From Moniliella sp. 'wahieum' (lineage: Eukaryota), in assembly GCA_003971905.1 (NCBI GenBank), contig RSEE01000016.1, positions 806,001 through 870,000 on the forward strand: a stretch of DNA of 64,000 nucleotides, in the 5' to 3' direction. This document shows positions 2,859-54,708 of the stretch, piece after piece. A model generated the notes under the pieces. It was not told where the DNA came from and did no database searches. It worked only from the letters and a program-made list of their open reading frames with translations. Both the position numbers and the translations under genes were made by a program. Within the stretch, counting starts at the first letter, position 1; each line of letters begins with the position of its first letter.

Positions 2859-3420
2859 TGTCACATGTCAGTACTCAGTACGTACTCAGTGTTATCCGTC
2901 CTTTGAGCAAGAACAATGCATCATAGCCATTCTATATTCTACCACACGGTTACGGATGAGTTATATTCCGGTTACCCATTTATTAACCGATTTTTGCATG
3001 TTAAAAGTCAGGACTCTTCCACGGTCCTTAGTAACTACTAGTGACTAGTTACTCATGCTGCCTGCTATCTGTCACACACAAGACTTCCTACGCGTCAGAT
3101 TATGTTGGGTTCCCCTCCCTATTCCATAGCCACAAAACAGCAAACAACACATTAAGCCGTTCCGCGGGCCCGAGGGGGGACAAAGAGCCCATTCTTCAGT
3201 TGGCTCACCGGTCGCCCCCCTTGACCAAAACCATGGCCCGCCGTGAAGCAATTGAAGGGAGCTTCGCCCGAGTACGTCTGTGTATCCAACACATTCTGTG
3301 AGTTGTGAGTTGTGAGTACAGTAAAGTGTACTTAGTATACTGAGTACTGACAATTGGTGACTATGTGTCTCCAGGCCCCAGGTCAGAGCTTCCAAGCTTC
3401 AAGCTTCAAGCTTCACGCGT
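2859..3420. repeat. Cluster of 7-bp-register T[CG]A-palindrome arrays
   Basis: TCA CATG TCA GTAC TCA at 2861; TGA CTAG TTA at 3042; TGA GTAC TGA at ~3341; (CAAGCTT)x3 then CACGCGT at 3393-3420. Confidence 0.85.
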
Positions 3421-5312
3421 CGCTGCACTAGTGACTATTTAGCGTCTACTAGCTAGTGCTACAAGTAATGCCCACCAAGTACTAATCAAAAGTCAAACGC
3501 ACCGGCTTCATAGATCATATCACAAATATATGTCCCAGAGGTCAGGGTCTGGGTTCCGCGATTTTCGCCGCAGACAGGCAACGGAGGTGGAACAACGAAC
3601 TGATGGAAAGGAATGGCTCGAATGGGAATCAGACGCAGGATTTGTTGAGGAGGACGACAAGAAGTCTTTCTAAGGTCTATCCGACAGACAATGAAACAGA
3701 GAGTACCGATCGTCAGCGCCCTACACGTTTGTTTAGATGGACAACATCAAACTAAGTAGAGGGTGAGCTGCATGTGAGCAGTAGCCAAAAATGTAGCGAG
3801 GAAGATGCTGTCGAGGCATTGTCACGGGCCGATACCGCCAGGGGGATCACCCGGGTTCTTGGGGTACAATCTCTTAGGAGACGGAAGATCGACTCACGGT
3901 AGTTTCCGGCTTGTGGTAGTTGGTGAATCCGAGCGGAGCTATAGGGGAGGAGGAGAAGCCTTTGGGAGGGCGACTGCACGTGTGGCAAGGCTGCGTCTAC
4001 ACCGGCTTGGGCCGTAGTAGTAAGGTGTCTGAAGCCTCCGGGGCTTAGGGACGGGAGGAGGCAGAGGTGGACATACACTGCCCCAACTGAGACAGGATAG
4101 AGACTAGAAATCGAGAGACGCGGCCGAAGGGGGCTCGCGCAACTGGACTGATGGAGTGCTGGAGGACGAGGTCGGAAGAAGAGTCGGGAGCTACCAAAAG
4201 AGGAGGCTGCCTGTACTGGATCAATCGTCTGGAAAACGGGCAGGAGTCGGACACGATAGGCAGGAAATGACGAGAATGTTGACTGTGATCCTCCGGCTCC
4301 CGGTCGGTAGACCAGGTTCGCCTCGGTTCCATCGGCTTCCACGCTGGGAGTGTCCCCGCCGTGTCACTGTCCCTGCGCCCTGCGTTCTCCCTGTGTGCCT
4401 CACTGGTCCTGTGTCTAGTCCGGCCTCCGATATAGATATGCCTCTGTACCCACATCCAACTCTGGCTCTAATCCACCACCTTCTCCTCATCCTTCTGCCC
4501 GTCCGGCTCCCTAGGTCCCCAAGAATGGAGGGTGGGGAAAAGATCCCCACCGACCAGGAGGGGTACAGAGGCTAAATCAAATGGGGAAATGGACACAAGA
4601 GGGGGCGTAGAAAAGAAGACACGTCAAAAGTGGGGTTGGTCACCGCGGGCGCGACCGAAAAAGGAAAGGGCGACGGACGTCGCAAAGATACTGAATACTT
4701 GATGGCCACATTTAGGCCAACCGACTTAGACTTGGGCGGGGGAGACTACTGTCGCGCGCACGCCTGGCTACTCGGGCCACGTACATGGTGCAACCAACCA
4801 TCGTCAACTTGGTTCTGCTTGGGGGCGCGCTTCACTGGGCATGTGCAGAGCTGAGGCGGGCCTTAGCTTGGGTCAGACCATCTTGGATCCGAAGCGGCCC
4901 GTAACACGCACTGTGCACAAAGTATGCGAGGAGATGTCTGAGGAAAACAACCTTCGTATGCGTTATTGAGTTCCCTTTTAGGGAGAGTGGACACTGAAGG
5001 CCCAGCAATGCCCTCGAGCAAACACTGAAGATGCCGAACCAACGCTATTAGACGAGTGCAATGATGCATATGGGAAAATCCTATAGCACACCCAACACAC
5101 GTATTAGCCAAAACCCACACAGAGAGCGAGATCACACAGCCTATGATCCCTCCGTTACCTCGGAGAATGCTAGACGTGTTGGGTAGTCTCTGACACCTCC
5201 ATTTGTCAAGGATATTCTCTCAACAATAGTGGATAGGAGCAGCTCATAGCCCAGGAGCAGCAAGTTCTGTCACCCAGTGGTGACCAACCCCTCCACGATT
5301 CCCGTTATCTTA

Positions 5313-5456
5313 TGATCTCCTGGCGATTCCCCTGGCTCCTTAAGTGGGATTAGCGCTACCAAAAGCAGCACAAGTAAGATGAAGGGGTCGATTTAGGGGT
5401 AGCGTTTCTCTGTCTCAGCTTAAACTCTGTCAATGATGGTATGGATGCAGAATAGA
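5313..5456 (+). repeat. Dispersed repeat family, copy B
   Basis: tgatctcctggcgattcccctggctcctt ... aagatgaagggg tcgatttagg gtagcgttt ... ctctgtcaatgat..atggatgcag; aligns to copy A (3' part) and copy C (full length). Confidence 0.85.
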
Positions 5457-5639
5457 GATGATAGAGGATTTTATCTAAAGAGATGGAGTTGGGGCGTCAC
5501 ATGTCACATGTCACATGCACAGCGTCACAAAATCATGTCACTGCATGACGCGGACGTCGGGAAAACCATCACATCAGCGCAATGTCACACACACTGCGAT
5601 GCCATGTATTGTAGTCCTTTTGGCAGAGACCGTTGGGCA

Positions 5640-5710
5640 TCTATTCTCTCCCATGTCATTGACAGAGCTTAAGGTTGTTGGGACACAGAAAAACGCTGCG
5701 GCTAATCCGC
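5640..5710 (-). repeat. Dispersed repeat family, copy D (inverted relative to B)
   Basis: Reverse complement reads ...cagcgtttttctgtgtccca..ccttaagctctgtcaatgacatgg..gagaataga, matching the 3' half of copies B and C. Confidence 0.75.
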
Positions 5711-6161
5711 ATCCAGCGTATGGGTGATAAAACGTCTCCAGCGTGGAATGGTGGAACGGTGGAACACGGTGTGGTTACGGTGGCGACACGGTGGCCCAGC
5801 ACCCAGTCTATCGACATCCGCGCGACAGGCTGGGGCGAAGCCCCGCAGACCGGGCCGTAGGCCCACAGTAGTCTCTAGTAATATGTAATGCATAACTGCA
5901 TAACTGCAGAACTGACCATAGAGGTCAATGCACAGAAGAGCAGCTGTAGAGGATCACAAAATACTTTAACATACGCATTTTAGGAAGGATGAGGGCACCA
6001 AAAACGGAACAGAAGTTGGGTATCAAGATGGAAGGAGCGCCAGTATAGCCTGTTAGACTATACTAGTGTCCGTCATCACTGAGGAAAATCTGGAGAGATG
6101 GTGGCACAGGATACGATCGGCTATTAAGAGAGGCGGCAGCTCCCTCCCCCTCCCAAGCTAC

Positions 6162-8219: not shown

Positions 8220-8288
8220 CACGCGGGGGCGAATCACGCGGGGCGATCACGCGGGGCGAATCACGCGGGCACACACGTGGGGGCGAAA
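8220..8288 (+). repeat. Imperfect ~13-15 bp tandem repeat (cacgcggggcgaat)
   Basis: About 5 degenerate copies read directly. Confidence 0.8.
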
Positions 8289-8314
8289 CCAGGCAAAACT
8301 TAAGGTTTAATGTT

Positions 8315-8690
8315 CACTCATGCACCATGCATGAGCATGAGCGCTGTTGAACGTTGAGCCTGAGCCACAGGAGCCTTGTGACATGTGACATGTGAATGAA
8401 GTCGGAAAGCAAACCATCCAGGCGGCATAGTAGTCTGTTTCGGAGATTCCGAAGTCGATGATCAATGATCGATGATCTATCCTCCTTCCTCGGCTCCGGT
8501 TGCTAGTTACGCGTTACGCGTTAAGCTAGTTACTAGTTATGGCTTATTTACTCTCGTTCCACCCCCCCGCACTGTTTGTGACATGTGACATGTGACATGC
8601 GATTGGCGGGAGAGAGCGCTGCGGGTGCAGCAACAGTATCTTCGTGGTGAGCCAGTGAGACCACGTCTGAGGCCTGAGGGCCTGACCGGC
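8315..8690. repeat. Dense cluster of 7-bp-register palindrome arrays
   Basis: TGA ACGT TGA; (TGACATG)x2-3 at ~8379 and ~8579; TGA TCGA TGA at 8466; TTA CGCG TTA CGCG TTA AGCT..TTA CTAG TTA at 8507-8539; TGA GGCC TGA at ~8668. Confidence 0.9.
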
Positions 8691-9235: not shown

Positions 9236-9400
9236 TCAATATTCAATGCTCAGGCCCTGAGGCCCTGAAGCTGAGCAGTCACAGACTGACTAGTAACATG
9301 TGACAGTCTGTAGCAACGTCCTGAGCCATCCCTGCTATGGAGACTGCAAGGAATGTGAATGGCTGAGCGCTGAGCTCAGCGCTGAGGCTCAGCGCTGAGA
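9236..9400. repeat. Cluster of 7-bp-register palindrome arrays
   Basis: TCA ATAT TCA at 9236; TGA CTAG TAA CATG TGA at 9287; T[GC]A GCGC TGA x3 at 9364-9398. Confidence 0.9.
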
Positions 9401-11711: not shown

Positions 11712-13251
11712 GTTGGCAGCGATAAAAATAAGCGGAAGGGAAAGAAGAGAGGCGAGTGAAGTGTGGTCCAAGACGAGTAGAAGGGGTGCTTTGAATAGAG
11801 GCGATGGCATATCCCTCACCCCCACTTTTTATACGCATCTCTCGTGGAGTAGGTCGGTGTGGTGGATTCAATCACTTGCAACCATGGATGGAAGTCGGCA
11901 TCGTATTTTCCCATTCGGGCAGTTGCAGGCCCACACGTAAGAAGAAATGGAAATATCCTCACGTACACACATCATGTTCTAAACATGATTGGGTTCTGAC
12001 TCATCTGCCAGCCTCCCTCTCAACATGTTTGATCATGATAGCCAAAACATTGTCGGTACCGCATTCCAAAGAAGGTGGTGCAAGCCCTTTCACCGCAGCA
12101 ATCCCCAGTTGGGCGTGGGAGCCATCGTTTGCTAACCACAAAAACAAGAGATATATGACGTCGAAGTTGCGTTGCTGGGACAACAAGTGAAGCAGGTGAA
12201 TTGTCGGAAGCGAACGTGCCCACCAACCCTGGCACCTGTGAATACTTGGGGACGGGGTGATGGCCAAAAATTCAACAGGGCTACGTGGGGCTGTGGTCTC
12301 TGATCGAATAGGAATATGAGGCTGAGGTAAAGTGGAGCGCAAAAGATAGAAAGAAAGACAATATAATGGACGGCTTTTTAGGCGCCTGTGTACCCTCTTC
12401 TCAGAATGCTATAATGCCTGTTCTCCGCAGAAGTGATGAGAGACACGCGGTCGCGGATCGGACCCAAACCATAAGGTACGATGGTTCCTAGTAGTACTTC
12501 AACTCGGTTCAACGTCTTCAACCTCCAGTCGTTCACCGTTCACACGTATCTCACAGACGTCCCCAGTATTATTTCAGTGTATTGTGGGACTGAGAGTACT
12601 CGCTGAGTACGGAACTGAGTATTACTGAGAGGGTACCCCATACAAAGAAGGTTAGATCTTAGACAGAGGCAATCTGTGATCCATTAGCACGCATGTTAGG
12701 AAGTGGTGTAAAGCTTGAAGCTTGAAGTGTGGTGGAACAAAGTGGAGCAGTGGAGCGTATGTTTTGCTTATAATAGCAAAAAGAGTGTGTCCCGTCTTGC
12801 CTCGGTCGTTGTTATCGATCATCGTTGCCTATCTCCGTGATCTGCCCACGTGAAATTGATGCGCATCCACTGCAGCGATCAAGCTTCAAGACAGCGGAAC
12901 CGACAAAAGGGAGTGGGGGCCGGGAGGCTAGTCGGACCGATGATTTTAACGATGAACATAACGCGATATCTACTACTCAAGCTCATTACATACTGCTTCG
13001 GCTGCTTGAACAAGCAGAATGCGACAAGAACGCCAAGTACCAGGGACGCACTCAAGAACCGTTTTTCCCCTGGTTTTGACGACGCGAGGATACTACGGCA
13101 CCAAGACGGCGGGCAAGTTGTTTGCGCATTGGAAGGAGTTGGCTACTAAGTCTCAGTGGAAATGGTTCCTCGCTCGTATGTCAACCACGTTCCTCCGTGT
13201 CCACACGCGCTTCCTAGGGTACGGGACCGGATGGCGTGAGCCGGAGGGTCC

Positions 13252-13378
13252 TGATATCCTGGCGATCCCCTGGTTCCTTGACCTTAGTGGCGCTTCCAAG
13301 TAACCCCCGCAAGATGAACGGTTCGGTTTAGACGTAGCGTTCCCCCTGTCCCAGCCTTAAGCTCTGTCAATGATATGA
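13252..13378 (+). repeat. Dispersed repeat family, copy C
   Basis: tgatatcctggcgatcccctggttcctt ... ccaagtaacccccgcaagatgaacggttcggtttagacgtagcgttccccctgtcccagccttaagctctgtcaatgatatg. Confidence 0.9.
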
Positions 13379-13496
13379 ATTCAAAGTGAAGGGCATAGCC
13401 CGCAATAATTTTGGCCCTGACACTGCCCCACTGCGACGAAATTGCCTGGTGAGAGCTTGCAACGCAGGTAGGGTTGAAACGTTGAAAGAGTCGGTC

Positions 13497-13503: not shown

Positions 13504-13538
13504 GGAGTTGGCTGGGAGGCATCCCAATATCGTTTTCC

Positions 13539-13650
13539 CAACTCTTCTGGCCTTCTGGCTTAGATCAAGTGTAGTATCTGTTCTTAACAGTTTGACAATG
13601 TTACGCTGGGCACTGCCCGCTGTACTTGTCATTCCACTCTTTGTGATTTT
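13539..13650 (+). ncRNA. U2: U2 spliceosomal snRNA (5' ~110 nt; 3' stem-loops not recognisable, possibly a truncated copy)
   Basis: GGCCTTCTGGCTTAGATCAAGTGTAGTATCTGTTCTT matches U2 stem I and the branch-point recognition sequence GUAGUA; stem IIa TAACA/TGTTA with loop TGACA complementary to downstream TGTCA (stem IIc); Sm-like ACTCTTTG at 13636. Confidence 0.9.
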
Positions 13651-14182
13651 AATGATCCTGGTTACCCGCGACACGTGTCAGGACTCGCTTGATTAGGGCG
13701 AGATTTTCCTCTTCAAGGAATCTTCCTCGTCGAGGTGCTCTTCCTTTGACGCGAGAAGATCGGCTCTGGTGCTGCGAACCTCCATGGCGCACAGCTGGGG
13801 AAGATCGAGACCGGCGCCTGGCACTTCCTTTATGGTCATCAGCATCTCATGGATCTTGTTTGCGGATTCAAGTCGCGTCCGGTTTGGGATTTGCCCTCGG
13901 GTTGCGACCATGTTGTGGTTGTATACCGGGGGCGGGTTGTGGGTCTTTGGGGAAAGGGAAAATCGGGAGATTTGGTGATGGGGGGCGACCGGGAGGTGGC
14001 CTTGTGGGGTGGGGGACGGCAACCGGGAGGTGGCCTTGTGCGGTGGGGGACGGGCAACCGGGAGGTGGCCTTGGGGTGGAAGGGTGGGATAACTGTGGTG
14101 CTCAGGACTGGGGTTGGGGAGATCAGAGAGTCGTAGGCTCAGGGTGAGCTTCAGATTGTAACTCTAATGATCCTGGTTACCC
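13650..14182. mobile_element. 515-bp segment bracketed by an 18-bp direct repeat (possible insertion or TE remnant)
   Basis: TAATGATCCTGGTTACCC at 13650-13667 and 14165-14182; internal G-rich minisatellite; no recognisable transposase or reverse transcriptase motif. Confidence 0.4.
13989..14077 (+). repeat. 34-35 bp G-rich minisatellite, ~2.5 copies
   Basis: ccgggaggtggccttg starts at 13989, 14023 and 14058. Confidence 0.9.
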
Positions 14183-15707: not shown

Positions 15708-16168
15708 TGCCAGGGCAGAGAGCAAGGGGTGGTGGTGGTGGTGGGAGGGCACGTGCGGGCCAACGCGGATCTAGCTTTGCCGCTGGCTATACATGGGGCC
15801 TAGCGAGTGCCCCGCGCCTCGTGCCTATCGATGCCGCCACACCGGGTAGGGACACGTAAGATGCGTTTTCGCTACGTAACTCGCTGTGACCCTGCAAGCT
15901 GCAACGACCAACATTCAATAGCAGCCACAGGCAACTGACGTCATCGATCGTCGGCCTGCATCATGTGTCGCTTGGTGCCTGGGCGCCCCAACAATGACCG
16001 ATTGCCTGCATCGTTCCACCTGCCCTGCGCCATTGGGTAAGGGGTACGAATATGAATATTTGAACAGGACCGCCGAGCGTGCTCCGTCAGATCATTACTC
16101 CAAGGCAATCTCCTCCGCCGGCGGACAGACCTCTGCCTGCTGCCCCATCTGTGCCTTGCCCGTGCGCC

Positions 16169-17654
16169 ATGCCACCAGACGCGCCCGACCCATCCTCCAA
16201 GTCTGCGCCGGCCCTGACGCAGGGTGAGCTCGAAGACGCGCTTTTGTCGCTGGCTGTCGAGGCACGTGCGCTGCTTGGCCTCGTTCCTTCCTCCTACACC
16301 CCACGCGGCAAGATTGACGGCATCGACACTTTCGATGTTGACCGACGCAAGGTTACAGCCCATGGCATTGAGGATGCTGGCCTAGGAGATAAAGAACGGG
16401 ACCACCCTGCTCACCGGTTTGCGGTATTGGGCACCGGTGTTCGCCTCTATCCTCCCTCGGCTCTCGAATTTGCTCGGGTGGTTGCCGCCCATGCTCCCGC
16501 CGTCTTTGCCGGCGTTCCTGAAGCACTTTTTCCCCGCGCATGGGCCAAATGGAACGACACTTCTTACCTCCTGTCCCGCATGGGTGACCGCAAGGTCAAG
16601 GTTGCTTTCACTCCCAATGGCCGCGCTGACGACATTGTCACCCTTCCTGCTGGCACCCAAGGGCCATCCACGGACAACAAGGTCTTCGCTCTGCCATACG
16701 AAGCCGAGCTGTCCGTATCCCATCCCTCCGTCCGCGTTGACCAAGGCATTTACTGACATTTCTTTTCCTACCCTCTTAGCACATTTACAGAGCTTTTTGA
16801 TGCTCTGCACCCTCCGGATGGCTCGGATGGCCCGGCTGCCTACTTGCAATCCCAAAACAACAATCTCTGCAGTCCCGACCACTCCGAGGGTGATTTTTCT
16901 CCTCTACTAGAGGACCTCCTGAGCACCTCTGTTGATCTCCCTTCTGGAACCCACCCAAGGGGGGATGAATCTGACGGGGCTAGTACCTCCTCTGGTACGC
17001 TTCCCGGCGCATGCTTCGCATTCTACCAATGGACCTCACTTGCTCGACGTGCCCTTTGCGTCGGCAGTGTATGGCGTCCCACCCGAGGCAGTCAACGTAT
17101 GGTTTGGTACGACAACGAGCGCCAGTTCGTTACACAAGGATCACTATGAAAACATCTTTGTCGTCATCAAAGGCATCAAAGTATTCACTCTTATTCCGCC
17201 TTGGGAAAACGCTTGGATCGAGGATGACAAGGTGTACCCCACCTACCGTTGGGCGCGCAAGGATGGCCAAACGACGCGGCCCCATTTCGCCTCCGACTTG
17301 CATCTGGTCCAGACTGATGGCTCGACCCCTTGGCTCACGGTGGATCCCACTCTTCCTCCTACCTCGGGTAGGAACCGAGGTGAAAAGAGATATGCACGTG
17401 GCCAACGCACCCACCTCATCCCTCCCATTAGGGTGGTGGTTCGAGCTGGAGAGACACTTTACCTCCCTGCTGGGTGGTACCACCACGTATCTCAAGCGGA
17501 AGATGTGTCGCCCAACCCAAAGGAGACGGCCGTGATCGGGCTCAACTTTTGGTACGATGTACCCCTCAATGATCGCTGGGCCTGGACCAACTTTGCTACT
17601 ACCTTGCGCCAGCAAGCCGATGGTACGCACAACCCGGACACGGACGAAGCCTGA
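16169..17654 (+). CDS. JmjC/cupin-like 2-oxoglutarate oxygenase, JMJD7-like
   Basis: VAFTPNGRAD, QSQNNNL, SLHKDHYENIFVV (HxD), VRAGETLYLPAGWYHHVSQ (distal His), NFWYD; intron 16715-16779. Confidence 0.88.
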
Positions 17655-19886: not shown

Positions 19887-20643
19887 GGGATTGCTAGGAG
19901 GGGTGCGAGGACCGTGGGGGAGGCATCGGCGAGAACCGGGATGGCCACAGCGGGGAGGAGGGGAAAGGCATTGATCGGCGTTCAAGTATTGGGCTGCCGA
20001 GGAAGACGGTAGAGGTGGAGGGATTGGTGCTCAAGCTTATGTGCTGAAGGACGTAGGTGGTGGTGGGGAGCTGACAGTCCGCGGCAACGATAGCACCTCC
20101 CTCACCTTAAATAGGCCGGCCTCCTCCCAGGGCGCTGCGGTCTGCTGCTGCCGTGGCGGGCAGCACGCGGGCAGTGCGCAGCCTGGATGCGGATGGATGA
20201 GCACAGTGCGGGGGTGCTGCTGCGTGGTTAAATGACGGGCGGCCTGGGCAGCCTGGTGGCCCTAGCCCTAGCGCCCAGCGCAGCGCCAGACGACGGACAA
20301 CCGATGAGCAGTGACCGGTGATCCCCCCCCCGGTCGGTGTGCTGTGTCCACTGGGGCGCTGTGCCGGGGTGGCTTGACCGCCAGTGCAATCACAGCACGC
20401 TCACGCAGACCCCCATCGGCATATCAATGTCACCGCCACTATCGCCAACCGCCCCCCCTCGTGCCCCAACTGCCCCTGCCCCACACCCCCTTCTCTGTGC
20501 AAGCGGCTGCGTCAGATGCGTGCATATACATTCCGAGCGAGCTCCATCCAATAGCAGGCAACCTCTTCCTAGGTGCATCCACACATGAGCACCATCGCCC
20601 AGCTGGAGCCCCAGGCCGCAATTCATCCCCATCGCCCCCCACT

Positions 20644-23659: not shown

Positions 23660-23851
23660 GGGCGCTGAGCCTCAGCCAGGCAGCGCGGGGGCGCTGAGGC
23701 CTCCTGAGGCCTGGGGCTCAGGTCGGCCTGAGAAAGGCGCTCGCTCAGCTCAGCGCTGAGCGGCTGTGGCTGAGGCTCAGCGCTTCACGCGCTAAGCCCT
23801 GGAATGCGAACGTTTCAAGTTGACACGAGGTGTTCGCGTTTTGAAATTTGA
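23660..23851. repeat. GCGC/GGCC-core palindrome array cluster between divergent genes
   Basis: Many ctgag/ctcag units; TCA GCGC TGA at ~23750; TGA AATT TGA at 23842. Confidence 0.8.
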
Positions 23852-24327: not shown

Positions 24328-25003
24328 ATGTCTGATCCGTATGACGACTATGCGGCCGATGTTGGTCAGCACTGGCCCATGCACGCCAACTGGCATCCGC
24401 GCGAGACCGCACGTCGCTCCAGTCGGCTCTCGACGCATTGAGGATGGACCTTGACGACCTCCGTGCTGCCGTTGAGGTGGCAGCTGCCCAATCGTCTCGA
24501 TTTGGATTGTCTCCGGAGGATGTGGAAGCGCGAAAACGGTTTGTAGACAAGGCGTACACCGAAATGGGCCTCTTGGCTCGCACACTCGACGTGGCAGAGG
24601 GTACCAGCGACCGGAAGGTGCAAGATCCAGAGGCCGACCCTGCTTTGGCGGACGAGGGAACAAGTTGGCGGATGACCAAGTTGATGACTTTGCTCAGTTC
24701 GAAATGGCGCACCAGGATACACTCTTTGATGCCCAAGAGGAGACACTGGGTTTGCTGGGAGGGACTCTAAGCTCACTCCAGCGCCAAGCAGGGCACTTTG
24801 GCGATGAACTCGCCACCCAGACTGAATTGTTTGAGACGTTGACATGGAGCTAGATCAAACCCAGTCCAAACTCCAGCGGGCAATGGCCGCATGGATACTT
24901 TTATCCGTCATACCGATGGCCGCCTTGGCGGTTGGTGCGTCTGGCTCTTGATTTTGGTGCGTTGAGTGTTCTCTTCATTGGCACATGCCGAGCTATGCGC
25001 TGA
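24328..25003 (+). CDS. TLG1: t-SNARE, syntaxin-6/Tlg1 family (frameshifted)
   Basis: MSDPY start; Syntaxin-6_N-like DLDDLRAAV...RFGLSPEDVEARKRFV; Qc-SNARE heptads QEETLGLLGGTLSSLQRQAGHFGDELATQ; C-terminal TM WCVWLLILV. Confidence 0.85.
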
Positions 25004-39094: not shown

Positions 39095-39165
39095 TATCAT
39101 CGATCAGCCTTCAAGATCAAGCTTCAAGCTTCAAGCAGCTTCAGCCTTCAAGCTTCAGCTTCAAT
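39095..39165. repeat. AGCT-core heptamer array upstream of the RasGAP gene
   Basis: TCA TCGA TCA, then repeated TCA AGCT TCA / cagcttca units. Confidence 0.85.
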
Positions 39166-40373: not shown

Positions 40374-40974
40374 TTACTTGCTCTGCTCCTTAGCCTTGTG
40401 TTCGGTCCACTCCAGCCAGGAACCGCGGTAGTTACGAACGTTCTTGAACCCGTGCTGAAGTAGATAATCCAGCGCCTTCTGCGAGCGCTTGCCCGAACGG
40501 CAATACACAATCAGCTTGGCATCCCCGCGGGGGCATGAAGGAAAACTTATCCAAAAACCATTTGGTCTGGTTGTCATCCTCCGCCGCCTTGAGCGCCACC
40601 GTCAGCTCCGACAAGGGCAAGTTGACTGCCGAAGGGATCATACCTTCTTGCGTCTCGGCTGGCTCCCGCACATCAATCAGGGTCACCTCCTGCATCACAA
40701 CACGTGTTAGTTAAGATCCTAGCACAGGAAGGGAGAGAAGGTAGCGTACCCCGGTAGGGTGCTCCGTGAGCGGCTTGAGTTCGTCATAGCTCACGTCCTT
40801 GTGCTCGGTCCACGCGTCCAAACGAAGAGCCGAGGCGACCAGCGTGCGCGAGCTGATGCGCGGAGGAAGAGGGACAGCGACAGCCATGCGGGTGGTGGTA
40901 GGCAGGGGCCCACGCACCCCCCTCAGAAGGGCGGCAGAGCATGAGGGCACAGCACGACGCACGGAAGCCAGCAT
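40374..40974 (-). CDS. Single-domain rhodanese (thiosulfate sulfurtransferase, Rdl-like), probably mitochondrial
   Basis: Arg-rich presequence-like N-terminus; LIDVREP.E...GMIPSAVNLPL; active-site loop YCRSGKRS; NYRGSWLEW; intron 40749-40690 with CTAAC. Confidence 0.92.
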
Positions 40975-41426: not shown

Positions 41427-43614
41427 GGGGCCGCCTCGCACAGATCGTTACACTGGATTATACGCTGGCATCCTGACTGGGCGCCTTGGCCACATGAATA
41501 GTTGAGCGCGGGTCTTCGAAGCTTCCTATAGCACAACCAAGGCGAGGAGAAGTCGGAGACACAAAAAGAGAAATCTCTCTACCGACTGAATATAAATGCG
41601 GGTGTGTCAAGTAGTTCCGCCATGTAACACTATCGTGGTTTTGGCAGGGTTGTTGTTGTACACGAGGAAGAGAGCACCGCAATAAAACGCCCCTTTGGAA
41701 CTCTGAGAGAAGGTGCTGCCTTTCGACTGTTGGAACAAACTGAATGCGAAAGAACACCAAGTACCAGGGCATTCAAGAACCTTTCTCTCCTTTGGTTAAT
41801 ATGACGTTGCGAGAAAACACTTTATGCTGCCAAGACGAGACGAGCAATATGTTTGGGCACCGATATGGAGGACGAATTAACTACTACTGAGTCTCAATCA
41901 TGGAGAAACCGTTAACACGTTCACACCGCTCGGATGCCTACCACAATCATTTGTATCCAAGGGCACTACCTAGGGTTTGGAAACTGATGGTGGGCGCCAG
42001 AGGGTCCTCATATGCTGACGGTTCCCACGGTTTCCTATTAGACAGGTTTTTGGCGCCAACAAGCAACACACGCCATCAGATGAGCAAAACCGGTCGGTAT
42101 AGGCTCAGCATTTCTTTTTGTCCCAGTCTAAGCTTTGTCGATGATATCGTTACAGTGTAAAGAGGCTTAGGAATATCCAGAAACAGAGAGTGATTGTAAT
42201 GTCTTCTTCAGCGTAATGATAGCGTATCATCACTGGGTCGTTTTTGTTGCTGCATCTCTCTCTCCAATTCAAGTACAAAATGAACTGTGGTGCCATGAAC
42301 ACCATACTAGTACCAGACATTTTTCCTTGGTATATAAGCATCCTGCAAAGGAGTAGGAGATTTATAACCGATCCCTCCTGTGACTGTTTCGCCTCTCGCG
42401 GCAAATCTAACATGAACGAAACAGAAGGGGACGGTTTGATTGGATCGAATCCCTAGTACGGCTCTTCTGATCGGCAAGTATTGTCATGGGGGGGTAGATG
42501 GACCGACGTTTTGGGGAGTAATCCCTTGGACGAAGTGTAGGAGCGGAAGATGCCCTCTCAATTTGGGTTGCCTGAGTGAAAAGGCGGTGGTTGAGACCCT
42601 CCGAGCACGGAGCGGCGTATTATAGGTCGTTCAACCCCGGGTTGTAGAGACTTAGATGGTCTCGGGGGTAATGTATGTAGTACCTTCCGGTTACCAGGAT
42701 CAACGCTGGTAATAGGCGGACCGAGACGGGATGTCGGGATCAGGCGTACGCCTGGTTCTGCACATATAGTCACCAGATTGGCTGAACCCTTATGGGTTCT
42801 ACACCTGTTTTTCCCCTTTGTCTATGTTCTTCCAAGATTCATGTCCGGAGAGGCAACCTGACTGTCTCCATAACACTTGAAGTATATAGTATGAAGCATT
42901 GAGAGGGAGTTGTAATGTAACGTTCCCCATTTGGAGAGGGACTGCCCAGCTGTTGGTTTCTTCCACCCCCAACGGGCGGCATTTTTGAGCCAATTTTGCC
43001 GGCGTATTAAACGTGAACATGCAACAGCATAGGGCATGATCTGCGTGATCTGCTTGATCTGTCAGCATAATACACAAAAGAAAAAACACACAACCGTTAC
43101 CAAATGCCGCTTCAATATAATAGCTTGGGCATCAACTATATGTCGCTGAATGAAGGGGCAGTGATAGCGTGTATAAGAAAGTAGGACCAAACCAAGTTCA
43201 GACGCGTGCCTTTTTGGCTGATTTTAACTCACCCCGCCGACAGCTTTTTTCGCTTCAGTTCGCCTTCCCTTCGTGTACTACCGCTTCACTTGCTGTCAAC
43301 ATAAGTTCGCTTCGCCTACCCCCTCTCTCTCCCCTATAACTTTTTCCCCTGTCGCAGGCACCCGTGCGCAGGCTTCCTTTTTCTCAAGTCCAATCGAAAA
43401 GGTGATCTCATCTCATTAAGTCTTTCAGATATCATTGGAGATGGTTCATAGTTCACATCAGGTCTACCCCACACGCATTCTTTTCATCCATTCGCCACAT
43501 CCAGGTTGGAAGAGAATATGGCGGGATCCACACACAATCTCCTAAGCTCATCAGTGTTGGCGACACCTCATCGCCTTCCTAACTGGGCTAGCAGATCTAC
43601 CAGCGCATATGCCG

Positions 43615-46600
43615 GGTGAACGTGGTGAACGTTGAACGTTGAACGAAGAGCTCGGCAGATGATAGTGTTTCTTTGTCCTTCTCTCAGTCTTTTCAGTTGT
43701 TCAAGTGCTGCTATATATGAATGCAGCAGTATATATATCAGAGGGGCTATAATGGGGACTACATCATGTTAGACTGATGTTGTGGGCGGACGCTTCATCT
43801 CGTAGCAAAGAGTCTTTGATATGCAATGCACGCGGCGATCAAGTTACAGCAACTGGCAATGTAGTAGTCTTAATGGATGAGAAGGTTTTGAGAGAATAAC
43901 TGTATAATAACTCGTTTGCACGTGCTGTGGTGAAGGGTTTTTCACGAGTGCCACGGTTTTTGGCACAGCAGAGCACAACAGAGTACTGACTGAGAGAGTA
44001 GTATAGCCTTGCCAGTACGTTGTTTCAGACTAGTAGTCACGAAGCAAATACTAATGATTAATGAGCCTGCCGTGCGTGATCTACAGATCTTGGCTTAAGA
44101 GTAGGAAGCACAGTATTAGCACTCACATGTCACACCCCCTACTATTATTAGTACGGATACGCTATTGGCGTAGATAGGATGTGGTTGCTGGCAAGACGCC
44201 AATGGTCTACTATTAGGTGGGGAACCTCTGTTAGATGCGATTGAGACACATAATCATATGACGTCTTCATAAAACGATGTGCCACACTTGTCAAGCGGCC
44301 AGTGGACTTCCTTGAACTTGAAGTAAAACGTTCAACGTTCACCCATAAAACAAGCTGTGCACATCTCCAAAATGGTCTGGTAATCGCCTTAGAAGAGGCT
44401 GTTTGGCGCCGCTATTCTGATGTATATCCGACAAAATGTTTGGTGATATGCACTGCGTTTTGTGTATATCTCAAACGGTGTCTGTTGGCATCTCACAATG
44501 CCTTCAGGTTCCACAGCGAAGTTTGACGATAACCAATTCGATCATTGTCGGGTCAATCGACAATCCCGCATCCCATCCATCTCTCGGACTCTCATTTCTG
44601 CTGATGCACTGATGATCGATGACATGTGACCTGTAACACCTTATGGGAGCTCTACTCTTTTCGTTGTATGCGGGAAAAATGCCCGAGGCTGATAAAATGG
44701 TTTTCAGTATGCCGCCCGCAAGACAAGCACGGTACTGATGAGACCTGGAGTCCAGATGGTCCTCGAGGGTGATGCAATCGCACTAGTGGTGGTGGTGGTG
44801 GTGGTGGTGGTGGGTCTAAGCCAACCAGCAACGCCTACAGAGGAACATCAAGCAGCGCACCAGGGGCTAAGCTGCGGAACAAGGAAAAACAGGAGAGAAA
44901 AACAACGGAACTCCTAGGCCTGAAGAGGAACTGAAGGGACATTGACCAAAGCACGAGCCACCTGATGGCTCAACAGGTACAGCACTTGGATTTGAGAGAG
45001 AGGCTTGAATCTTGAAGCTTGACGGAGGAAAGGCTATGTACGAGAGCTTGAAGCTTGAAGCTTTTGACGCTTGAAGCTTGAACGTCTTGAACAAAAAGTG
45101 TATCTCCGACGACGAAGCTCAGCGCTCATGCACTCACATGGCGCTCATGATTATCATGTGCCTATTTTGTGAGTACCTGATGCCGTGGGTGTCCAGCCAT
45201 GATGCAAGGTCATGCATGAACATCAAATACAGGAAGAGACCCTGTGTTACGCCCTGATGAGCAAGGAAGCGCATCATGCACATCATACAACATTCTCAGA
45301 TCTCATAATGGACCCTCCATGAGAATTGTGGTAATGCGATGATTTTGAGATGTGACATGTGGGATCTAGCAATTGGATCTGAGATCTGAGATACTGAGTA
45401 CGTACGGGCGTAGCACTGGCGTAGCAGGGCGTAGTAGCACGTTGAGGCTGTTGTGTTTGTGTGTGTTGTGACATGTGATGTGAACATGTAAATATGCAAC
45501 CAATGCATCATGCGATGCATGTGATGGATGTGATGTTTAGATCTCAGATCTCACATCTTTCCGAATCTCGCACTCACATCATTAGCACAGGTCACTTCAT
45601 TGGCATGTAAAATGATTAATGACGAAGGTACTGAAGACAGAAGGTTGAATGTTGAGGGGAGTATCATGTACCGCGTATCTCATTCTCAGGGCGATTGGCA
45701 GCCAGGGGGCTGATCGAGAGGGTCCGACATACTGATGGGTATACAAACACTCCAGGTAGAGAACCCGAACAGCGCAACGGTCTGGAGTGTGGCGCTAGAG
45801 CGTGGTACCCGGTACCGTGGCGTCGGTGATACGTGGGATGGTGTGGGGGATGCAGGCGATAAAAACGCAAGCATCATGCACATGCGTTATAGGGGGAGAG
45901 GGTGCCATCATATTAATCCCAATTCAGAAAGAAGGATGGGAGGTCGGCGTGTGGTGAAGCTTGAAGGGAAAGCGTGCCCCATATGATGGTGTGGAATCGT
46001 GTGTATTGGGATGCTGTGGCCGGTAGTACTATAATAGGTGTGTGCGATTACTTGCTAGTTATACAACAGGGCACTTGGAGCACAGAGAGACAGAGATATT
46101 CAATGCCCCACCTGACATGCCACATACACAGTTGCCGCAACTTCGCATCATGCACATGTGTGCACATCATGTTTCATGCATCTTTTGCTTCATGATGCCA
46201 TCCGTAATACTTCTCAGTACCTAATAGTAAACACATATAAACACGCCCTCAGGCCTCAGGCCTCACATCCTATATCAAGATCAACACATAAGACAATGGC
46301 AGTGCATTAACTAGTAAGAAGTGCAACAAAACTTGATCTGGCATGCTGCACACGGAGAGTTCATCCCCCCGACGGGGCCCCTACCGGCCCTATCCCCTCA
46401 AAATTGCCTTCTTGTGGCCGGTTATAACATTCTGGCGAAGAGAGATCTCGATCAACGGCAGAGTGGTCGCAAGTCTCACTAGTCACTATAGTCACTTTCG
46501 TCACTAGTCACTATAGTCACCTTCTGGCCACCCTTGTCCGCTTCCTCCCAACCGTTCTTGTGACTGTAACAGCCTCGGTCCTGTTGGCGTCCGTTCCGGC

Positions 46601-46860
46601 GCACGCGACCATGCCAGCACTGCAACACCGTGGCTGGTACAGGGTAGTGCCCCCAGTGCAGCATGTAATACAACAGAGTTTAATCCCATACAGATTCCGG
46701 CCCCTTGTCTGGGACACGAGCCAAACTGTAACGTTCACGCGTTGCCGTTTAACGTTTAACGTTTAACGTTTAACGTGAATCTTGAATGTTGAATGTCGTG
46801 AACGCGTGACGCGTGAAGCTTGAAGTTAAGCAGCACTGAGCCTGAGCGCTGAGGCGCATA
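43615..46860. repeat. Gene-free tract rich in 7-bp-register palindrome arrays
   Basis: ACGT core at 43626 and 46749; TTAA at 44055 and 45613; TCGA then CATG at 44613; AGCT at 45000-45090; GATC at 45380 and ~45545; GGCC at 46249; CTAG at 46476 and 46501; CGCG then AGCT at 46807; GCGC at ~46843. Confidence 0.9.
44786..44812 (+). repeat. (GTG)9 microsatellite
   Basis: Read directly. Confidence 0.95.
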
Positions 46861-47632: not shown

Positions 47633-50600
47633 ACGCAAGATTTCCCCGTGTCAACCGCCGCAATGGAGGCGAGCGATGCATGCACCAATTTCGCCTTCCC
47701 CGACACACTCTTCGGGGTTTGCTTGTTTAATATCCCCACCCCGGTCCCTTATTCTTGTTACGGAAAGAACGGGTGTTTTTCCCTCATCCTCCGACACGCC
47801 GTTTTTGGTGTTCTGATTATATTCTGCATATGTTGCTCCCACCGATCTTCTATTTTTTCGCTCAGGTACTTTTCATATTTCTTTATTGTCCTCGTGCAAG
47901 CAACAACATGTACTGTGACCCTCTAAAACGGGCCCGAGTCATCATTGGGGGGAGAGACCATTATGTGATGATCGTCGAGCGCATGGTGTCTTGTAACTGA
48001 AGAAATCCAACAATGGCTCACAGATGTGTGGTTGAGGATAATTGTACGTTCAGCTATATTGCACTTCACGAACCATGTCCGGCTTAAAAGATCCCAAAGG
48101 GTCACCTCATATGGTGAACGCTCCAATGCCAATGGAGTCCACAGTAGTTACGCAACAGTTGATAGAGATCAGACTTCACGTATGATACGGGCTCACCTTT
48201 TTAGTGGAGCGCCTGATGCCTTTGACGATAAATCATGTCGTATTCATTATCATTTGAAAAGAAAAACTTAGCAGGGACACTCAAGAAACGCTGTGCCAAC
48301 CATACGAGCTTGCTCACCCGGCGTTTCTGACAGCTCACGCCATCCCAACCAGGAGACCATGGTGTTTTCCCACCAGATCGATGGAGTAGGGGGGCTTCCG
48401 CCCCATTCGTTGCTACACCGGATGCAGTGCCATTATTGGTAGATGTATACGAATGGCGTATCTCTCTTGAAACTCTTCTCTGCAAGTTCCTTCCAGCAGA
48501 GTTCAAACATCTTTTCATGACAGTATTGGTGGCGCATAGTTACCCACAGTGTGTTGTCATAGTCCAAGGTGGAAAACGGGCTTTGAGTGCGTCCGTGGAA
48601 CTTGGCGTTCTTGTCGCACATACGGCTCGCTCGAGCCCTAGATGCAGATCCTCTCCCCGCACTCCTCAGGCACTGATGAGACGATTCCTCGTGTATCAAC
48701 ACATTATTTGTAAGTAACGCACCCTTGCCCTCATTCGTCCCGAGTCTCACAAGATGTGTAACACTTCCATCCCTGATCCAATAAAAGCACCTTGGGGCCT
48801 CCCCCCTGAAGTCCTTTTACGCCTAGAGCTATTATCTCTCGTCGCGATTCCATACACTTCTTCCCCCACAACCGGTCCATTGAAATAGAACATGAAGGTA
48901 TCCCAAAGATGAAGCGCACAACTGAAAATGGGCTTCCCCATTGTCTCGTGCAGGGGAATGCTCCAAATCCTCTGGCGCCTACGCTACAGCCTTCCGATCT
49001 TAGAACGTTCGCTGAATCTCACTGTGATTAGTTAGCAACTCCCCCGTGTGGTCACGTACAATCTACCAGGCAAAAGAACACCCGGCGACCATCCCCACAA
49101 ATAGCCCACATCCTGCCCAACGTGCAGTGCTGATGGCCTGAACGGCCTGAACATTTCTTTCTCTCCTCTCCCTGTGCCGTCACGTGGTATGCCAGCCACT
49201 GGCCTCCACGCCCTTCACTTCTGACGTCTGACGTCTGAGAGAGATCTGACGCATGATGTTGCTCCCCAACCCCTCCACCTCACACCCACCTCACACCCCC
49301 ACCTCACACCGACTAGCACCCATTGGCCATTACACCAACAGGATGGCGACGATGGTCCCCTCCAATGCCGCTTCGTCTTCGCCGCCAATCCCTCTGCACC
49401 GGGAGGACCTCAGCGTCATCCTCCACAGTGCTAGCGCGCCTGATCCACTTCTGCGCCAATCGGCGTATGCCTGTCTTGCCTGGGCATCGGCCTCAGCCCG
49501 CATACCGACCCCTCTCGCCCTACCTGCCCCCTCCCTCTCCTCTAAATTTGGCCAGTCCTGAGAGTGCGGGTGCAGCTGCTGCAGCAGGCGCAGCAGGTGG
49601 CGCAAACGCTTCCCCTCTCACACTTCCCTCAGCCCCGGCGCACACCGTCTCCCTATCGTCAAGCCCGCCGATGACGCCTCCCAGAAGGAGATACCACCTC
49701 CACACCCAGCACGGACCGACCATCTCTTCTTGAGGCTTAAAAGCTTGAGCGCTGGACTCGGCACAGAGCGCTCGACGTGCTCAACGCTCACCTTTTTTGC
49801 CATGACTTCGGCTGTCCTCCGTTGAGGCACGCGCCTTTACCACACCTCACCACTTCGCATTTCACTAGTAACTCTTGATGGCTTCGAACTCCAAACTTCA
49901 ACCCATGATCCCTGTTACGCACTTCTCACTTGGGATTCCTCTGGTCATGGCGGCTTCCTTCAGGCCTTAACAGCGGCCGCATCTCAGAGTGAGGCTGCGC
50001 CAACGCGCGCAGCGCTGTGAATATCAGGCTCAATCAGCCTATCTGGGAACCCTTCTTTCCTTCCCATCGACTCGCAATGAACACTCTAAATTACCAATGT
50101 TTTCTTCTCCGACCGAGGATAGATGGGGCAGAAGGGCAGGTGTCGCACGCCGGCGCCATCGGCCATGGGCTATCGATTGGGCCAGGACACAGTGCATTAT
50201 CCGGCCACCGCAGTCACATTACGCACGCATCGACATCAACGTTCGATGAACAGGTTGAGCCTTGTTGGCTTTCCAACGTGTGCAACCTCCAATCTCCAAC
50301 ATCGTCCGATGGCTGATGGCCAGCAACTGCCGTTGCCGTCTGATGTTGGGCCGGACGAATAGGAAAGGTCACGTGCAAGCCCGGCGTGAGCGACCAGACG
50401 CGTTGAACATTTGACAATGCCATTTTTTCGATCCACAGGGGTTGCTGTGCGTCAGTGTCGCCATACGTCATGGTCACCGTGGGCACCTCAGGCAGGCCTC
50501 AGGCCTTAGGCTGGCCTCAGTGCCTCAGAGCATCCTCAGCGCTCCTCAGCGCCTCACTCTCAGTGCAGCCAGGTGTCACAATGTCAGCAGGTGTCAGCTC

Positions 50601-50686
50601 AACGTCATCGGGTGTTAAGGAGCTGTAGTGCAGGCGCCACTGGCCTCTCTCACCACCACCGTTGCGAACGTTGGCCAGAACAAGCA

Positions 50687-51522: not shown

Positions 51523-51755
51523 ACAGCGCTAATCAATTTTCAGCTGTGCTGATGTACTATTCCACAAGTACAGTACTCCTGCGTATATTAAACGACCATG
51601 CTGAAGGTGGTGCACACGAGCTGAACCAGAATATACACTGTGTAGACACGGAAAAGGATATGCAACGAGCTCTAAATATAAAGGAACGACAGGATGCTCA
51701 ACATCAGCAAAAGATGCAAGAATACGAGAAAGATGGTGCACAATGGCGATACGCG

Positions 51756-53490
51756 TTACGCCCAGGCTCTTTCGTCAAGCACGGGAGAAAACTGCGGTGG
51801 GGTGGGCGAGGCCAAGGGAAACTGGTGGGATGATGCGCGTGTTTTGACCAGCCCAGGACGCTCATATTTGCGGCCTGAGCGCGTCGAACGGCGTTGCGGT
51901 TCAGGTGGTGCGACAGGAACATACCCATCATCAGGATCCTCCAGCATTGGTGCATGACCCAAAGGATCAGAGTACCCCACGGACCAAGGGATCTCTCCAC
52001 CATGGTACGCGGTGTGGGTCGAACTAGGAATCTGGACCTGTACCGCCCTACTTACCCTTTCTTCTTGTAGGATGAAGGGTCGACGACCGTGGCCTCCCCG
52101 TTTCCATAACAACATTGAGGTAGCCCATCATGAAGGACGAGATGAGCACTTGGTCCCGCAGATTCCGTCGGGGATGAGCTAGCTTCAAGTGACTTAGACG
52201 GTAAATGGCGTGCTCGACATGCAGCGGAAACCGTGTAACCGTCACGTCCCTCAATTCCCCCCAACGCCCCTCCCCATTCAGCCGGAATGCCACCTGGCCT
52301 CGGTTCCATTGGCATTTGCAGTTTGGGTGTTTTTTTCTTGCCAAAGCGACCGAAGAACTTGCTTTCCTCAGCATGCCCTTGGTCGAGAGTAGATTTGCGG
52401 CGCTCCAACTCCCCCTTGGGCTCCGAGCGATCATCCGCGCGCCCGCCAGCCACCCAACCAGATTATTCCTTTTCTTCCGTCCCGATGGTGTGGGAGAGGG
52501 CGGTCCTGAAAAAGGATACTCGGCGGGGGAAGATGGATGTTGGCCCAGTGGAAGAACTTACAGGGAGTGAATACGACCGTGCTGGAGTCTTTTCCTCTTC
52601 CACAGGTCCGGAAAGATGCCAATGCTCCTGTGCAACCTCAAGCTCCATCATTGGTGCGGGGAGAGATGGAAAAGAATGCGGGGAGACGGAAGGAATCATG
52701 TCTACCCCGGCGGGCCATTGTTCGGCATCTTGAAATTGCTCGGAGGTAGGCGAGGTGGTGGGAGAAAGAGACGGTGTCAATCCCATCTGCTTCCTCCTCA
52801 GAAGACCGAGAAGAAGGGGGGCTCTCATTCCCGTCACTCTTTTCAGAAAAAAGGGAGGCGGCGAGCGACGGAGTCAGGGAATTGGATGAAGAAGGGCAGG
52901 AACTCGAACCGGAGGATGCAGTGGAGCAAGTGTCCTCCAACGCTGCCGAATTTAATCCGCCTTCTCCAGGGGACGGGTCTCCTTTCCGGGTACCGCCAAC
53001 GGACGAAAAGGATCAGCTTTACTCAAGTCTACCTCGTTGGCAAGTAAGACCAAGCCAGATGGACTGGCCGTGGGGCTGGCCATTCTCTCCATTGGGAGCG
53101 GTTCTGGATGTTGCCTCGATGCGTACCACAGGCGGGACGAGTGACGGGCGAAGGTAGGATGGGCATGCTGCTGATGATTTTCGCTCGCGTCCTCCGCTCC
53201 GGACAGGGGGGGCGGTGGGTTTCCCCGTCTGCCTTCTCTTTCTCAGTGAGGACAAGGGAAGGGGTGGCTTCGGAATGCGCCCGGGCGGGTACCCAGCCAT
53301 CTTTGGGTCGCGACGGTCCTCGTTTCTTCCGGATGGAAAGACGAGCAACGAGCGTAGGCTCCCATGAACTTGTCGCACTGCGTCCTCCCGAGGGCATGGT
53401 CTATGGGCCGAGGCGGTGGTCCAGGATCAAGAGGTCCAGATGGAGGAGAGAGGAGAGGTCTATTTCTAGCCTGGTCGATATCTATGCAGC
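51756..53490 (-). CDS. Zds1-like protein (Zds_C domain; PP2A-Cdc55 regulator family), frameshifted
   Basis: TRFPLHVEHAIYRLSHLKLAHPRRNLRDQVLISSFMMGYLNVV at ~52240-52110 is the Zds_C signature; Ser/Pro-rich upstream region; start uncertain. Confidence 0.75.
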
Positions 53491-54708
53491 ATAACGCAGG
53501 GCGTTGGCGCAGGGCCGCGTTGGCCCATGCACCCTCGCCGCTATCGGGGTACTACATAGGTGTGGACGCCCTCGTCACGCGTGTCATGTGATACGAGATG
53601 CGTGACATGTGACATGCGTGGTGCCTGCTGGCTGTACGAACGGGTGACCGGTGATTGGCTTGTCGCTGGTGTGATCTGTGACACTGTGATCTCGTGACAT
53701 GCGCCATCCTGCATCCTACTCCTGTGGCCGACGTGGCGCCCCCATCGACCATCCATCTCTCCCTTGGCTTGGCAGTCCTGGGCAGGGAGGGCAAACATGG
53801 TGATCGGACTAGAGCTGCCCTTCAGCAGGGCAGCGCCAGGTAGCGTGCGGGACGATCGCACTACCGTGCTGCTCTGACGCCCTTTTCCTTTGCGCACACG
53901 GGCTCAAGAACATCGTCTACATGTGATGAAGAAACACGGAGGGGATCGACTTTGCCTCTCTCACTCGGGGCGCCCAGGAGAGGTGCACTCGTTCATTCCT
54001 GAAGCGACGGCTGGCGTTGCGAGCACACGTGCACTCACGTACTCAGGACACTCCGATCGACTGGTCCGTCCGCAGAAGGCCTGAGTTAGGCCTAACTGCT
54101 GAGCTCCTGATTCAGTTAACCCTTCTCCTGCACCGCACACTGCCCTTCTCCTCCGCAATCGGTTCGGGATCGACGATCTTTTAAAGCGCACATCTGGCCT
54201 GTGGTTGTGCTCTGTTGTGCCCTCGATAACTTTTACCGTGAGAGCTTGTCTTGATCGCAATCGGGTCGATGAGGCCGACAGATGATCGATGGAGAGCGGC
54301 CGCTCATTAATCATTCCCGCAACCTGAGGACACCCTGGGGTCGGAAAGGCCCCTGGGGGGGGGGTGTAACTTTTGTTGGTCCACTGGGAGAAAGAGCCTG
54401 TCCGCGCGTAAGAGCTATCATGCATCGTGCCAGTGACTGCGATCACACATCATGCATCACCCATGTTTCAAGCTTCAACTTCACCGCCGTCCCATCCAAC
54501 TCTCTTCCCTCCTCTCGACGGGCACCTCTGGATAGGATGGAATACGAATATCATTGCCTCCTGTGACTTGCCTTTCATAAAACCAACACTGTTGAGTTGG
54601 GGATAACCACTGTTGAAGCAGGTCGGTGAGATGAATCTCCTGTGTTGCTCATTACGACGAGTTAGGGATCCTGGGGCCTTACAATGGATGCGTGACGGTA
54701 GCGAACTG

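Follow-up and report, generated by a model that had tools for sequence, protein, structure and literature searches.

Footprints of hairpin-forming DDE transposases, including those of the hAT elements Ac/Ds and Hermes and of Transib, the MULE element Muta1 and RAG, carry a direct duplication and, beside it, a few bases adjacent to the break copied in inverted orientation. Units with this outline are found in a 64,000-nucleotide (nt) stretch of the genome of Moniliella sp. 'wahieum' (contig RSEE01000016.1, positions 806,001 to 870,000; hereafter the window, numbered from its first letter). Each unit is composed of a TNA triplet, most often TCA or TGA (jointly TSA), a 4-nt palindromic core, and the same triplet again. 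Compared with hairpin-derived footprints, however, these units are nearly uniform and free of deletions, their inverted bases are located at one defined end, the TNA is off-centre, and neither element copies nor a transposase are present within the window.

Three other systems invite comparison. The PIF/Harbinger elements, which are related to IS5, resemble this locus in their 3-bp target of the TNA/TWA type (TTA/TAA), but their target preference spans 9-15 bp (PMC2836001), whereas the units described here show no context beyond TNA, prefer C or G as the middle base, and are not accompanied by any such element in the window. Short template-switch mutations, as represented by the quasi-palindromes of Ripley and by the four-point model (PMC5453318), require neither a break nor end joining. 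In contrast to these, the inverted fragment in our units is 2 nt long, is tied to a TNA triplet, and recurs at a high share of sites outside open reading frames (ORFs), with 65 TSA units beside 1087 free sites. Finally, small inverted triplications of the DUP-INV-DUP class have an architecture that is formally direct-inverted-direct, as here, but those presented in PMC13334657 measure approximately 148/160/148 bp with 30-bp spacers, rather than having a 2-bp inverted segment at a sequence-specific site.

Each of these closest known systems shares one feature with the units, and each departs from them in at least one defining test. Neither heptamers of TNA plus a 4-nt palindrome nor a 7-nt insertion coded by its flank were found to be described in open-access papers and bioRxiv preprints, and it is a realistic possibility that this flank-templated micro-insertion reflects a new activity. 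The units are best explained as the products of a lineage-specific mutational process, rather than as a family of functional motifs or as transposon scars. This process very probably obeys a formal rule in which F-TNA becomes F-TNA-rc(F)-F-TNA, where F is the flanking dinucleotide and rc denotes the reverse complement.

Flank-coded heptamer units at TNA triplets

The evidence on units comes from this single 64-kb window, wherein units that belong to the same array or to a 25-nt tandem repeat are not independent. Repetition at a period of 7 nt is prominent, with 397 repeated 5-mers compared to 109-181 at periods of 4, 5, 8, 10, and 11. There are 172 maximal period-7 runs of at least 12 nt, and the repeating unit of 59 of these combines TCA or TGA with a 4-nt palindrome, which is estimated to occur by chance in about 1.4%. 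Expected counts for TNA-palindrome-TNA 10-mers were derived from 50 simulations with a third-order Markov model, and were 0.94 for TCA (33 observed), 1.06 for TGA (32 observed), 0.3 for TTA (seven observed), and 0.06 for TAA (three observed). The distance between the triplets is likewise constrained. When the gap is 4 nt, TSA-palindrome-TSA is present 65 times versus 1.9 expected, whereas gaps of 2 and 6 nt yield seven (6.4 expected) and three (0.33 expected), respectively, and TSA triplets that abut directly are found 51 times (48.5 expected). Moreover, the two triplets of a unit must be identical, and the perfect 10-nt palindrome in which the middle base of the second triplet is complementary (TSA-palindrome-TS'A) is not enriched (5 versus 2.4 expected).

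The core of a unit is predicted by the dinucleotide that flanks it. For the 54 isolated units, defined as those not inside longer arrays, we scored the rule as present when at least 2 nt of flank on one side agreed with the far half of the core. Such agreement, which the original prediction had set as a check on single units, is observed in 46 of 54 (chance 12%; binomial p = 2.5e-34). When cores were permuted among the units 5000 times, the mean number of agreements was 7.8 and the maximum was 19, and comparing the flank with the wrong half of the core gave 5/54 and 3/54. By (left, right) extension, the largest classes are (2,0), which has 13 units, and (0,2), which has nine, and the total run length is exactly 12 nt in 25 of the 54. 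The 12-mers cited in that prediction are all present where it placed them (44053, 45611, 54304, 41204, 23840, 53643, 9236, and 2859), and the exception at 20312 (AG-TGA-CCGG-TGA) is real, with one mismatched flank base.

It had also been proposed that XY-TSA becomes XY-TSA-Y'X'-XY-TSA, so that the target is regenerated and arrays can build. This scheme is borne out by inverted spacers in 38 of 53 XYTSA-nn-XYTSA 12-mers and in 36 of 51 TSAPQ-nn-TSAPQ 12-mers, as well as by the chains described below. Spacers inverted from the TNA end are found only at chance levels (5/53 and 3/51), and thus the inverted bases are confined to the end distal to TNA.

Chains, in which TNA triplets recur every 7 nt and enclose palindromic cores, were modelled as arising from one ancestral site with flanks L and R, at which left events give the core rc(L)+L and then right events give the core R+rc(R). 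By this model, 52 of the 61 chains reduce wholly to a single ancestral F-TNA-R site, which supports regeneration of the target by the product. There are 12 multi-core chains, nine homogeneous and three mixed, and this split matches the 3:1 ratio predicted when all sides of all triplets in a one-core chain are targeted equally. Of the mixed-core chains, two fit exactly and one is off by a single flank base (Table 1).

Same-core arrays also occur as inverted pairs at 43624-43640 and 44327-44343 (686 nt apart; 17/17 positions complementary, GG/CC flank included) and at 45376-45392 and 45541-45557 (148 nt apart). We considered these as terminal inverted repeats (TIRs) and rejected the idea, given that similarity stops at the array, a target duplication is absent, and the interiors are dissimilar. 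The pairs are probably coincidental within the zone where units are densest. At its start (positions 1-38), the window cuts a composite TCA-CATG / TCA-CGCG chain.

Site choice appears to involve more than base pairing. On the plus strand there are 58 12-mers in which a 5-mer is repeated on either side of the reverse complement of its first two bases, and 44 of these contain TNA (TGA 22, TCA 16, TTA 5, TAA 1). Other self-complementary triplets (GNC, CNG, and ANT) are essentially absent from this set, and therefore pairing strength alone is insufficient to explain the choice of site, which is more likely to be made by a protein. Outside ORFs, TCA and TGA hold units approximately three times as often per free site as do TTA and TAA, for which there are 10 units beside 529 free sites. 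Among 39 oriented events, the flanking dinucleotides include 15 of the 16 possible types, and no context motif other than TNA and the flank is evident within 8 nt. Likewise, 15 distinct cores are in use. Long stop-free frames (at least 150 codons) cover 52% of the window yet hold five of 75 units, a scarcity that fits a mutational process and that is expected if 7-nt insertions are purged from coding DNA.

The main class has a 5-nt direct repeat, and departures from this length are rare, comprising two cases with a fixed 5-mer and three in which the length depends on the flank. The former carry three inverted bases (13475 and 46799) and constitute 2 of 19 candidates of that form. One variant with a 4-nt flank is located at 2875, and a 3-nt flank creates the period-9 variant listed in Table 1. 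For a fixed 5-mer with one inverted base, the spacer equals the predicted base in 12 of 30 instances versus 7.5 expected, although this comparison is confounded by strand duplicates. A 1-nt flank (period 5) is not enriched, with five instances over both strands. In a further subclass, an A plus the same palindrome is already present upstream of the first TNA, giving a left extension of 5 (28941, 44332, 12716, 29016, 45544, and 46807). This subclass is more common than chance, and its upstream triplet is often AAA or lies within GTAAA.

Young and decayed copies coexist, as revealed by 73 perfect 12-mers that follow the rule (0.3 expected) and 99 with one mismatch (9.8 expected), some of the latter being the edges of arrays. 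These counts suggest a process that has been running for a long time. In the decayed units at 45646, 8459, and 46783, the core differs from its prediction by a change of CG to TG or CA (ACGT to ATGT, TCGA to TCAA), which hints that new palindromes may undergo CpG-type decay.

As control DNA, we used metagenome contigs matching a 17-nt (TGACATG) seed, which provided at least 121 unrelated loci totalling 408 kb with very mixed GC content. This number of loci is near the chance expectation for the size of the database by a rough estimate, and the loci are plain microsatellites. Among the matches listed, the lengths of 136 seed arrays are distributed evenly modulo 7 (13-25 per class), and 29 of 71 other TNA-palindrome-TNA units are of class (0,0), whereas 21 of 71 follow the rule, many of them in TATA-type low-complexity DNA. 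Because the control exhibits no phase peak and mostly lacks flank agreement, the grammar belongs to this genome and not to heptamer repeats in general.

Proposed mechanism and competing explanations

The explanation we favour is an insertion of exactly 7 nt at T-N-A in non-coding DNA, composed of the reverse complement of the 2-nt flank, the flank, and the triplet, where either side of the TNA could serve as the flank. In this view, a TNA-recognising host protein would place a nick or break, at which hairpin-type, P-nucleotide-like fold-back copying of the flank would write rc(F), and F-TNA would then be re-synthesised without the involvement of a resident transposon. Since the product ends again in F-TNA, events could repeat to build heptamer arrays, and a left plus a right event at one site would create a mixed-core chain. 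The complete package, in which the formal rule is combined with protein-directed, TNA-specific, one-sided fold-back insertion in the absence of a resident transposon, is in our judgement evenly balanced between right and wrong, and we propose protein-directed fold-back at TNA as such only tentatively, as a possibility somewhat short of probable. More speculatively, the host may possess an activity as yet undescribed, perhaps a TNA-targeting nuclease or transposase that has been domesticated and works with a hairpin-opening or fill-in enzyme, and such an activity might write rc(flank)+flank+TNA at any T-N-A. This would amount to a self-propagating birth of microsatellites at a per-site frequency comparable to that of point mutation, and would make 4- and 6-nt palindromes throughout non-coding DNA. 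We regard this broader proposal as doubtful.

Several observations weigh against the favoured explanation. The flank rule is broken in eight of the 54 isolated units (27, 5886, 20312, 39097, 44620, 46308, 46843, and 54468), although in the six exceptions with TCA or TGA the flank base beside the triplet still agrees on at least one side. Different spacers are present in 15 of 53 XYTSA-nn-XYTSA repeats, and the four units of class (5,0), with A plus the palindrome already upstream, are not explained by the rule. Core usage is mildly skewed towards AGCT (12 versus 4.3 expected) and CATG (8 versus 3.5 expected), with a chi-square of 27.6 for 15 degrees of freedom. In addition, about four TSA heptamer arrays are plain and non-palindromic (3299, 25993, 49222, and 61349), which indicates that ordinary duplication or slippage is also at work. 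The polarity of the change, presumably a gain of 7 nt, is read from the pattern. Just as the original prediction had held that the responsible enzyme is not encoded in the window, no transposase or reverse transcriptase (RT) domain and no other enzyme candidate is present among its 278 ORFs. Furthermore, a hairpin or P-nucleotide route would require a 5-nt overlap, an off-centre TNA, and processing confined to one end, a combination not documented for any known nuclease.

The main rival to protein-directed fold-back is spontaneous template switching during replication, which would generate a micro direct-inverted-direct product without a site-specific protein. By this route, the nascent F-TNA would pair with a same-sense TNA (T:A, N.N, A:T) or fold on itself, copy the reverse complement of the two flank bases, return to the start of F, and copy F-TNA again. 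Template switching is inherently one-sided and precise, the 7-mer that is inserted, F-TNA-rc(F), constitutes a mini-hairpin by itself, and within TNA the outer T and A complement each other. Even the rare variants with a 3- or 4-nt F obey F-TNA-rc(F)-F-TNA. Inverted repeats made by template switching are documented in PMC5453318, and direct-inverted-direct triplications are attributed to replication errors in PMC13334657.

When compared with the four-point model, the units do have a nearby reverse-complement copy, given that 46 of 54 have rc(flank) as their spacer. However, the return point is not downstream of the departure point, and the rule instead requires the switch to go back to the base at which F starts. 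Switches with such an upstream return (point 4 before point 1) are absent from the human-chimp and human-human data in PMC5453318, where this class is thought to require the opening of a new duplex. The small inverted triplications in PMC13334657 are approximately 150 bp rather than 2 bp. Moreover, microhomology for the return is lacking in the modal (2,0) class, GNC, CNG, and ANT would pair equally well or better and yet are unused, and the absence of the pattern from unrelated DNA is left unexplained. A stem of 2 bp closing a loop of 3 nt also makes a very weak structure, which counts against template switching. Overall, we consider this rival unlikely. A different scheme, in which a symmetric 7-nt staggered cut is followed by a switch during fill-in, was rejected. 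The double-switch core rc(L)+rc(R) that it predicts is never found, and plain 7-nt duplications number just about four.

Quite improbable, in our view, are footprints from a hairpin-forming cut-and-paste transposon (hAT, Transib, MULE, or RAG-like), which would consist of a 5-bp NNTNA duplication plus two palindromic (P) nucleotides. Hairpins that form on the flanks and are then opened leave P nucleotides at repaired donor sites, as described in PMC5499845 and PMC5873905. The units match the footprint formula of a 5-bp direct repeat plus two inverted bases, and a fixed 5-mer with three P bases fits the two cases at 13475 and 46799. Nevertheless, the original suggestion of excision by hAT/RAG-type or PIF/Harbinger elements is not supported, given the lack of resident copies in the window, the one-sided and uniform product, and the off-centre TNA. 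Transposase and RT domains are absent from 144 ORFs of at least 122 amino acids (aa) and from 134 ORFs of 70-121 aa in the window. The DNA transposons or MITEs (miniature inverted-repeat transposable elements) for which a search at TNA sites had been suggested were not found within the window, nor is there a dispersed TIR or MITE family in these 64 kb that hold 61 chains. A self-BLAST of the window revealed a single dispersed family, which is promoter-like and not bounded by TIRs.

The P bases are also restricted to the TNA-distal end, with the other-end type at chance as noted above, and the product with zero P bases is likewise at chance (6 versus an estimated 4 or so). Within the duplicated 5-mer the TNA is off-centre, unlike the symmetric target preference of DDE transposases. 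The nearly uniform outcome here contrasts with Ac/Ds in Candida, for which PMC5873905 reports 28 footprint types, with deletions, among 128 events, and palindromic arms of at most 3 nt. Excision by the PIF/Harbinger element mPing was precise in 109 of 110 events (PMC2836001), and a footprint consisting of its 3-bp TNA/TWA duplication is not supported by the directly abutting TSA triplets, which are at chance.

Ordinary heptanucleotide microsatellites whose partial end copies mimic the flank rule, or arrays selected as protein-binding sites, are a very remote prospect: although non-palindromic period-7 arrays are present (e.g. 3297, 49220, and 61341), two-core chains are more common than independent events would give (49:11:1, an estimated comparison), and (TGACATG)n is found in many unrelated metagenome contigs, slippage can make neither the first copy nor the palindromic core, run lengths peak at 12 nt where the control arrays show no preferred phase, the cores of mixed-core chains follow from the flanks of the same chain, and there is no single binding motif because 15 different cores are used.

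Feature coordinates and gene context

The window has a GC content of 55.8% and is eukaryotic nuclear DNA. Its ordinary genes were detected in pieces by Pfam, and are listed in Table 1 with the representative units, arrays, and chains.

Table 1. Heptamer units, arrays, and chains of the window, followed by its gene features
Feature	Position	Strand	Remark
Mixed-core chain TG-TCA-CATG-TCA-GTAC-TCA-GTACGTAC-TCA-GT	2859..2891		Cores coded on the left by TG and on the right by GT; last core doubled (n = 4 variant)
Mixed-core chain CG-TGA-CGCG-TGA-AGCT-TGA-AG	46805..46825		One left and one right event from CG-TGA-AG
Mixed-core chain GA-TGA-TCGA-TGA-CATG-TGA-CC	44611..44631		Left core agrees; right flank CC where CA is predicted
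Array TG-(TGA-CATG)2-TGA	8377..8395		19 nt = 5 + 2x7; two left events
Array (TGA-CATG)3	8577..8599		Both flanks agree
Array (AGCT-TCA)3	3393..3415
Array (TCA-CATG)3	5496..5517		Right-flank type
Array (TCA-AGCT)2-TCA-AGC	39117..39136		Right-flank type
Array (TGA-ACGT)2-TGA-ACG	43626..43645		Right-flank type
Array CC-(TCA-GGCC)2-TCA	46247..46265		19 nt; two left events
Array (TTA-ACGT)4	46746..46776		Longest array; W-centred TNA
Period-9 variant TAG-TCA-CTA-TAG-TCA	46480..46524 (46483, 46508)		3-nt flank; twice in a 25-nt tandem repeat
Densest zone of units	43600..46860		ORF-poor; GC ~0.50
Single event TCA-AT-AT-TCA-AT	9236..9247		Right flank
Single event TT-TGA-AA-TT-TGA	23840..23851		Left flank
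Single event TGA-AA-TT-TGA-AA	41204..41215		Right flank
Single event AA-TGA-TT-AA-TGA	44053..44064		Left flank
Single event AA-TGA-TT-AA-TGA	45611..45622		Left flank
Single event GG-TGA-CC-GG-TGA	53643..53654		Left flank
Single event TCA-TT-AA-TCA-TT	54304..54315		Right flank
Exception AG-TGA-CCGG-TGA-TC	20310..20323		Triplet-adjacent flank base agrees; distal base mismatched
U2 small nuclear RNA (snRNA) gene	13540-13652	+
Transfer RNA (tRNA) with intron	54726-54831	-	ARAGORN reported no tRNA in the window
JmjC/Cupin_8	16064-17651		Pfam
C2H2 zinc finger	20845-21555		Pfam
Syntaxin-6 N-terminal domain	24345-24767		Pfam
MFS transporter	26629-27429		Pfam
RasGAP	33725-34543		Pfam
Rhodanese	40377-40710		Pfam
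Zds_C	52051-52557		Pfam
SF3A3/Prp9	54932-56375		Pfam

Zds_C is a fungal domain. The closest named relatives of the SF3A3 piece are from Ustilaginomycotina (Tilletiaria anomala at 60%, then Meira and Violaceomyces), with Agaricomycotina close behind, and assembled proteins match it at up to 77%. For the JmjC piece, all named relatives are at or below 38%. These matches point to a basidiomycete source that probably lies close to Ustilaginomycotina.

A dispersed conserved element of approximately 90-400 nt is present at 2598-2685, 5313-5450, 12997-13383, 41722-42147, and 48567-48618 (inverted). One copy is located directly upstream of the U2 snRNA gene, and therefore the element is possibly a promoter of the snRNA type. 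Downstream of the remaining four copies Rfam has no match, and a relaxed-threshold Rfam search around the repeat matched U2 alone. These four could mark unrecognised small RNA genes. No 7-nt indel was found among the paralogous copies of this repeat.

Two additional arrays differ from the heptamers. The first, at 22545-22696, is a long imperfect array of TGGGCT-like sequence with periods of 6/12/18/36 nt within overlapping long open frames. It probably represents low-complexity coding sequence with no relation to the heptamers. The second, at 8220-8287, has a period of 14/27 nt built on TCA-CGCG-GGGCGAA units. This array adjoins those of the heptamers and may represent a derived repeat of higher order.

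Implications for the birth of short tandem repeats

The origin of short tandem repeats in non-repetitive DNA is a long-standing problem, in that slippage explains their growth but not their first copies. The units of this window offer a deterministic birth rule that can be read from the sequence itself, by which each base of the product can be predicted from an ancestral site of 7 nt, and approximately 1 in 18 non-coding TCA or TGA sites in the window is affected. If the rule holds genome-wide, it would represent a new mutational signature with readable polarity and would provide phylogenetic markers that are poor in homoplasy. It would also indicate that DNA is processed by a sequence-specific activity, for which the genome can be searched, and would explain why the intergenic regions are rich in restriction-site-like palindromes and hairpin-prone arrays.

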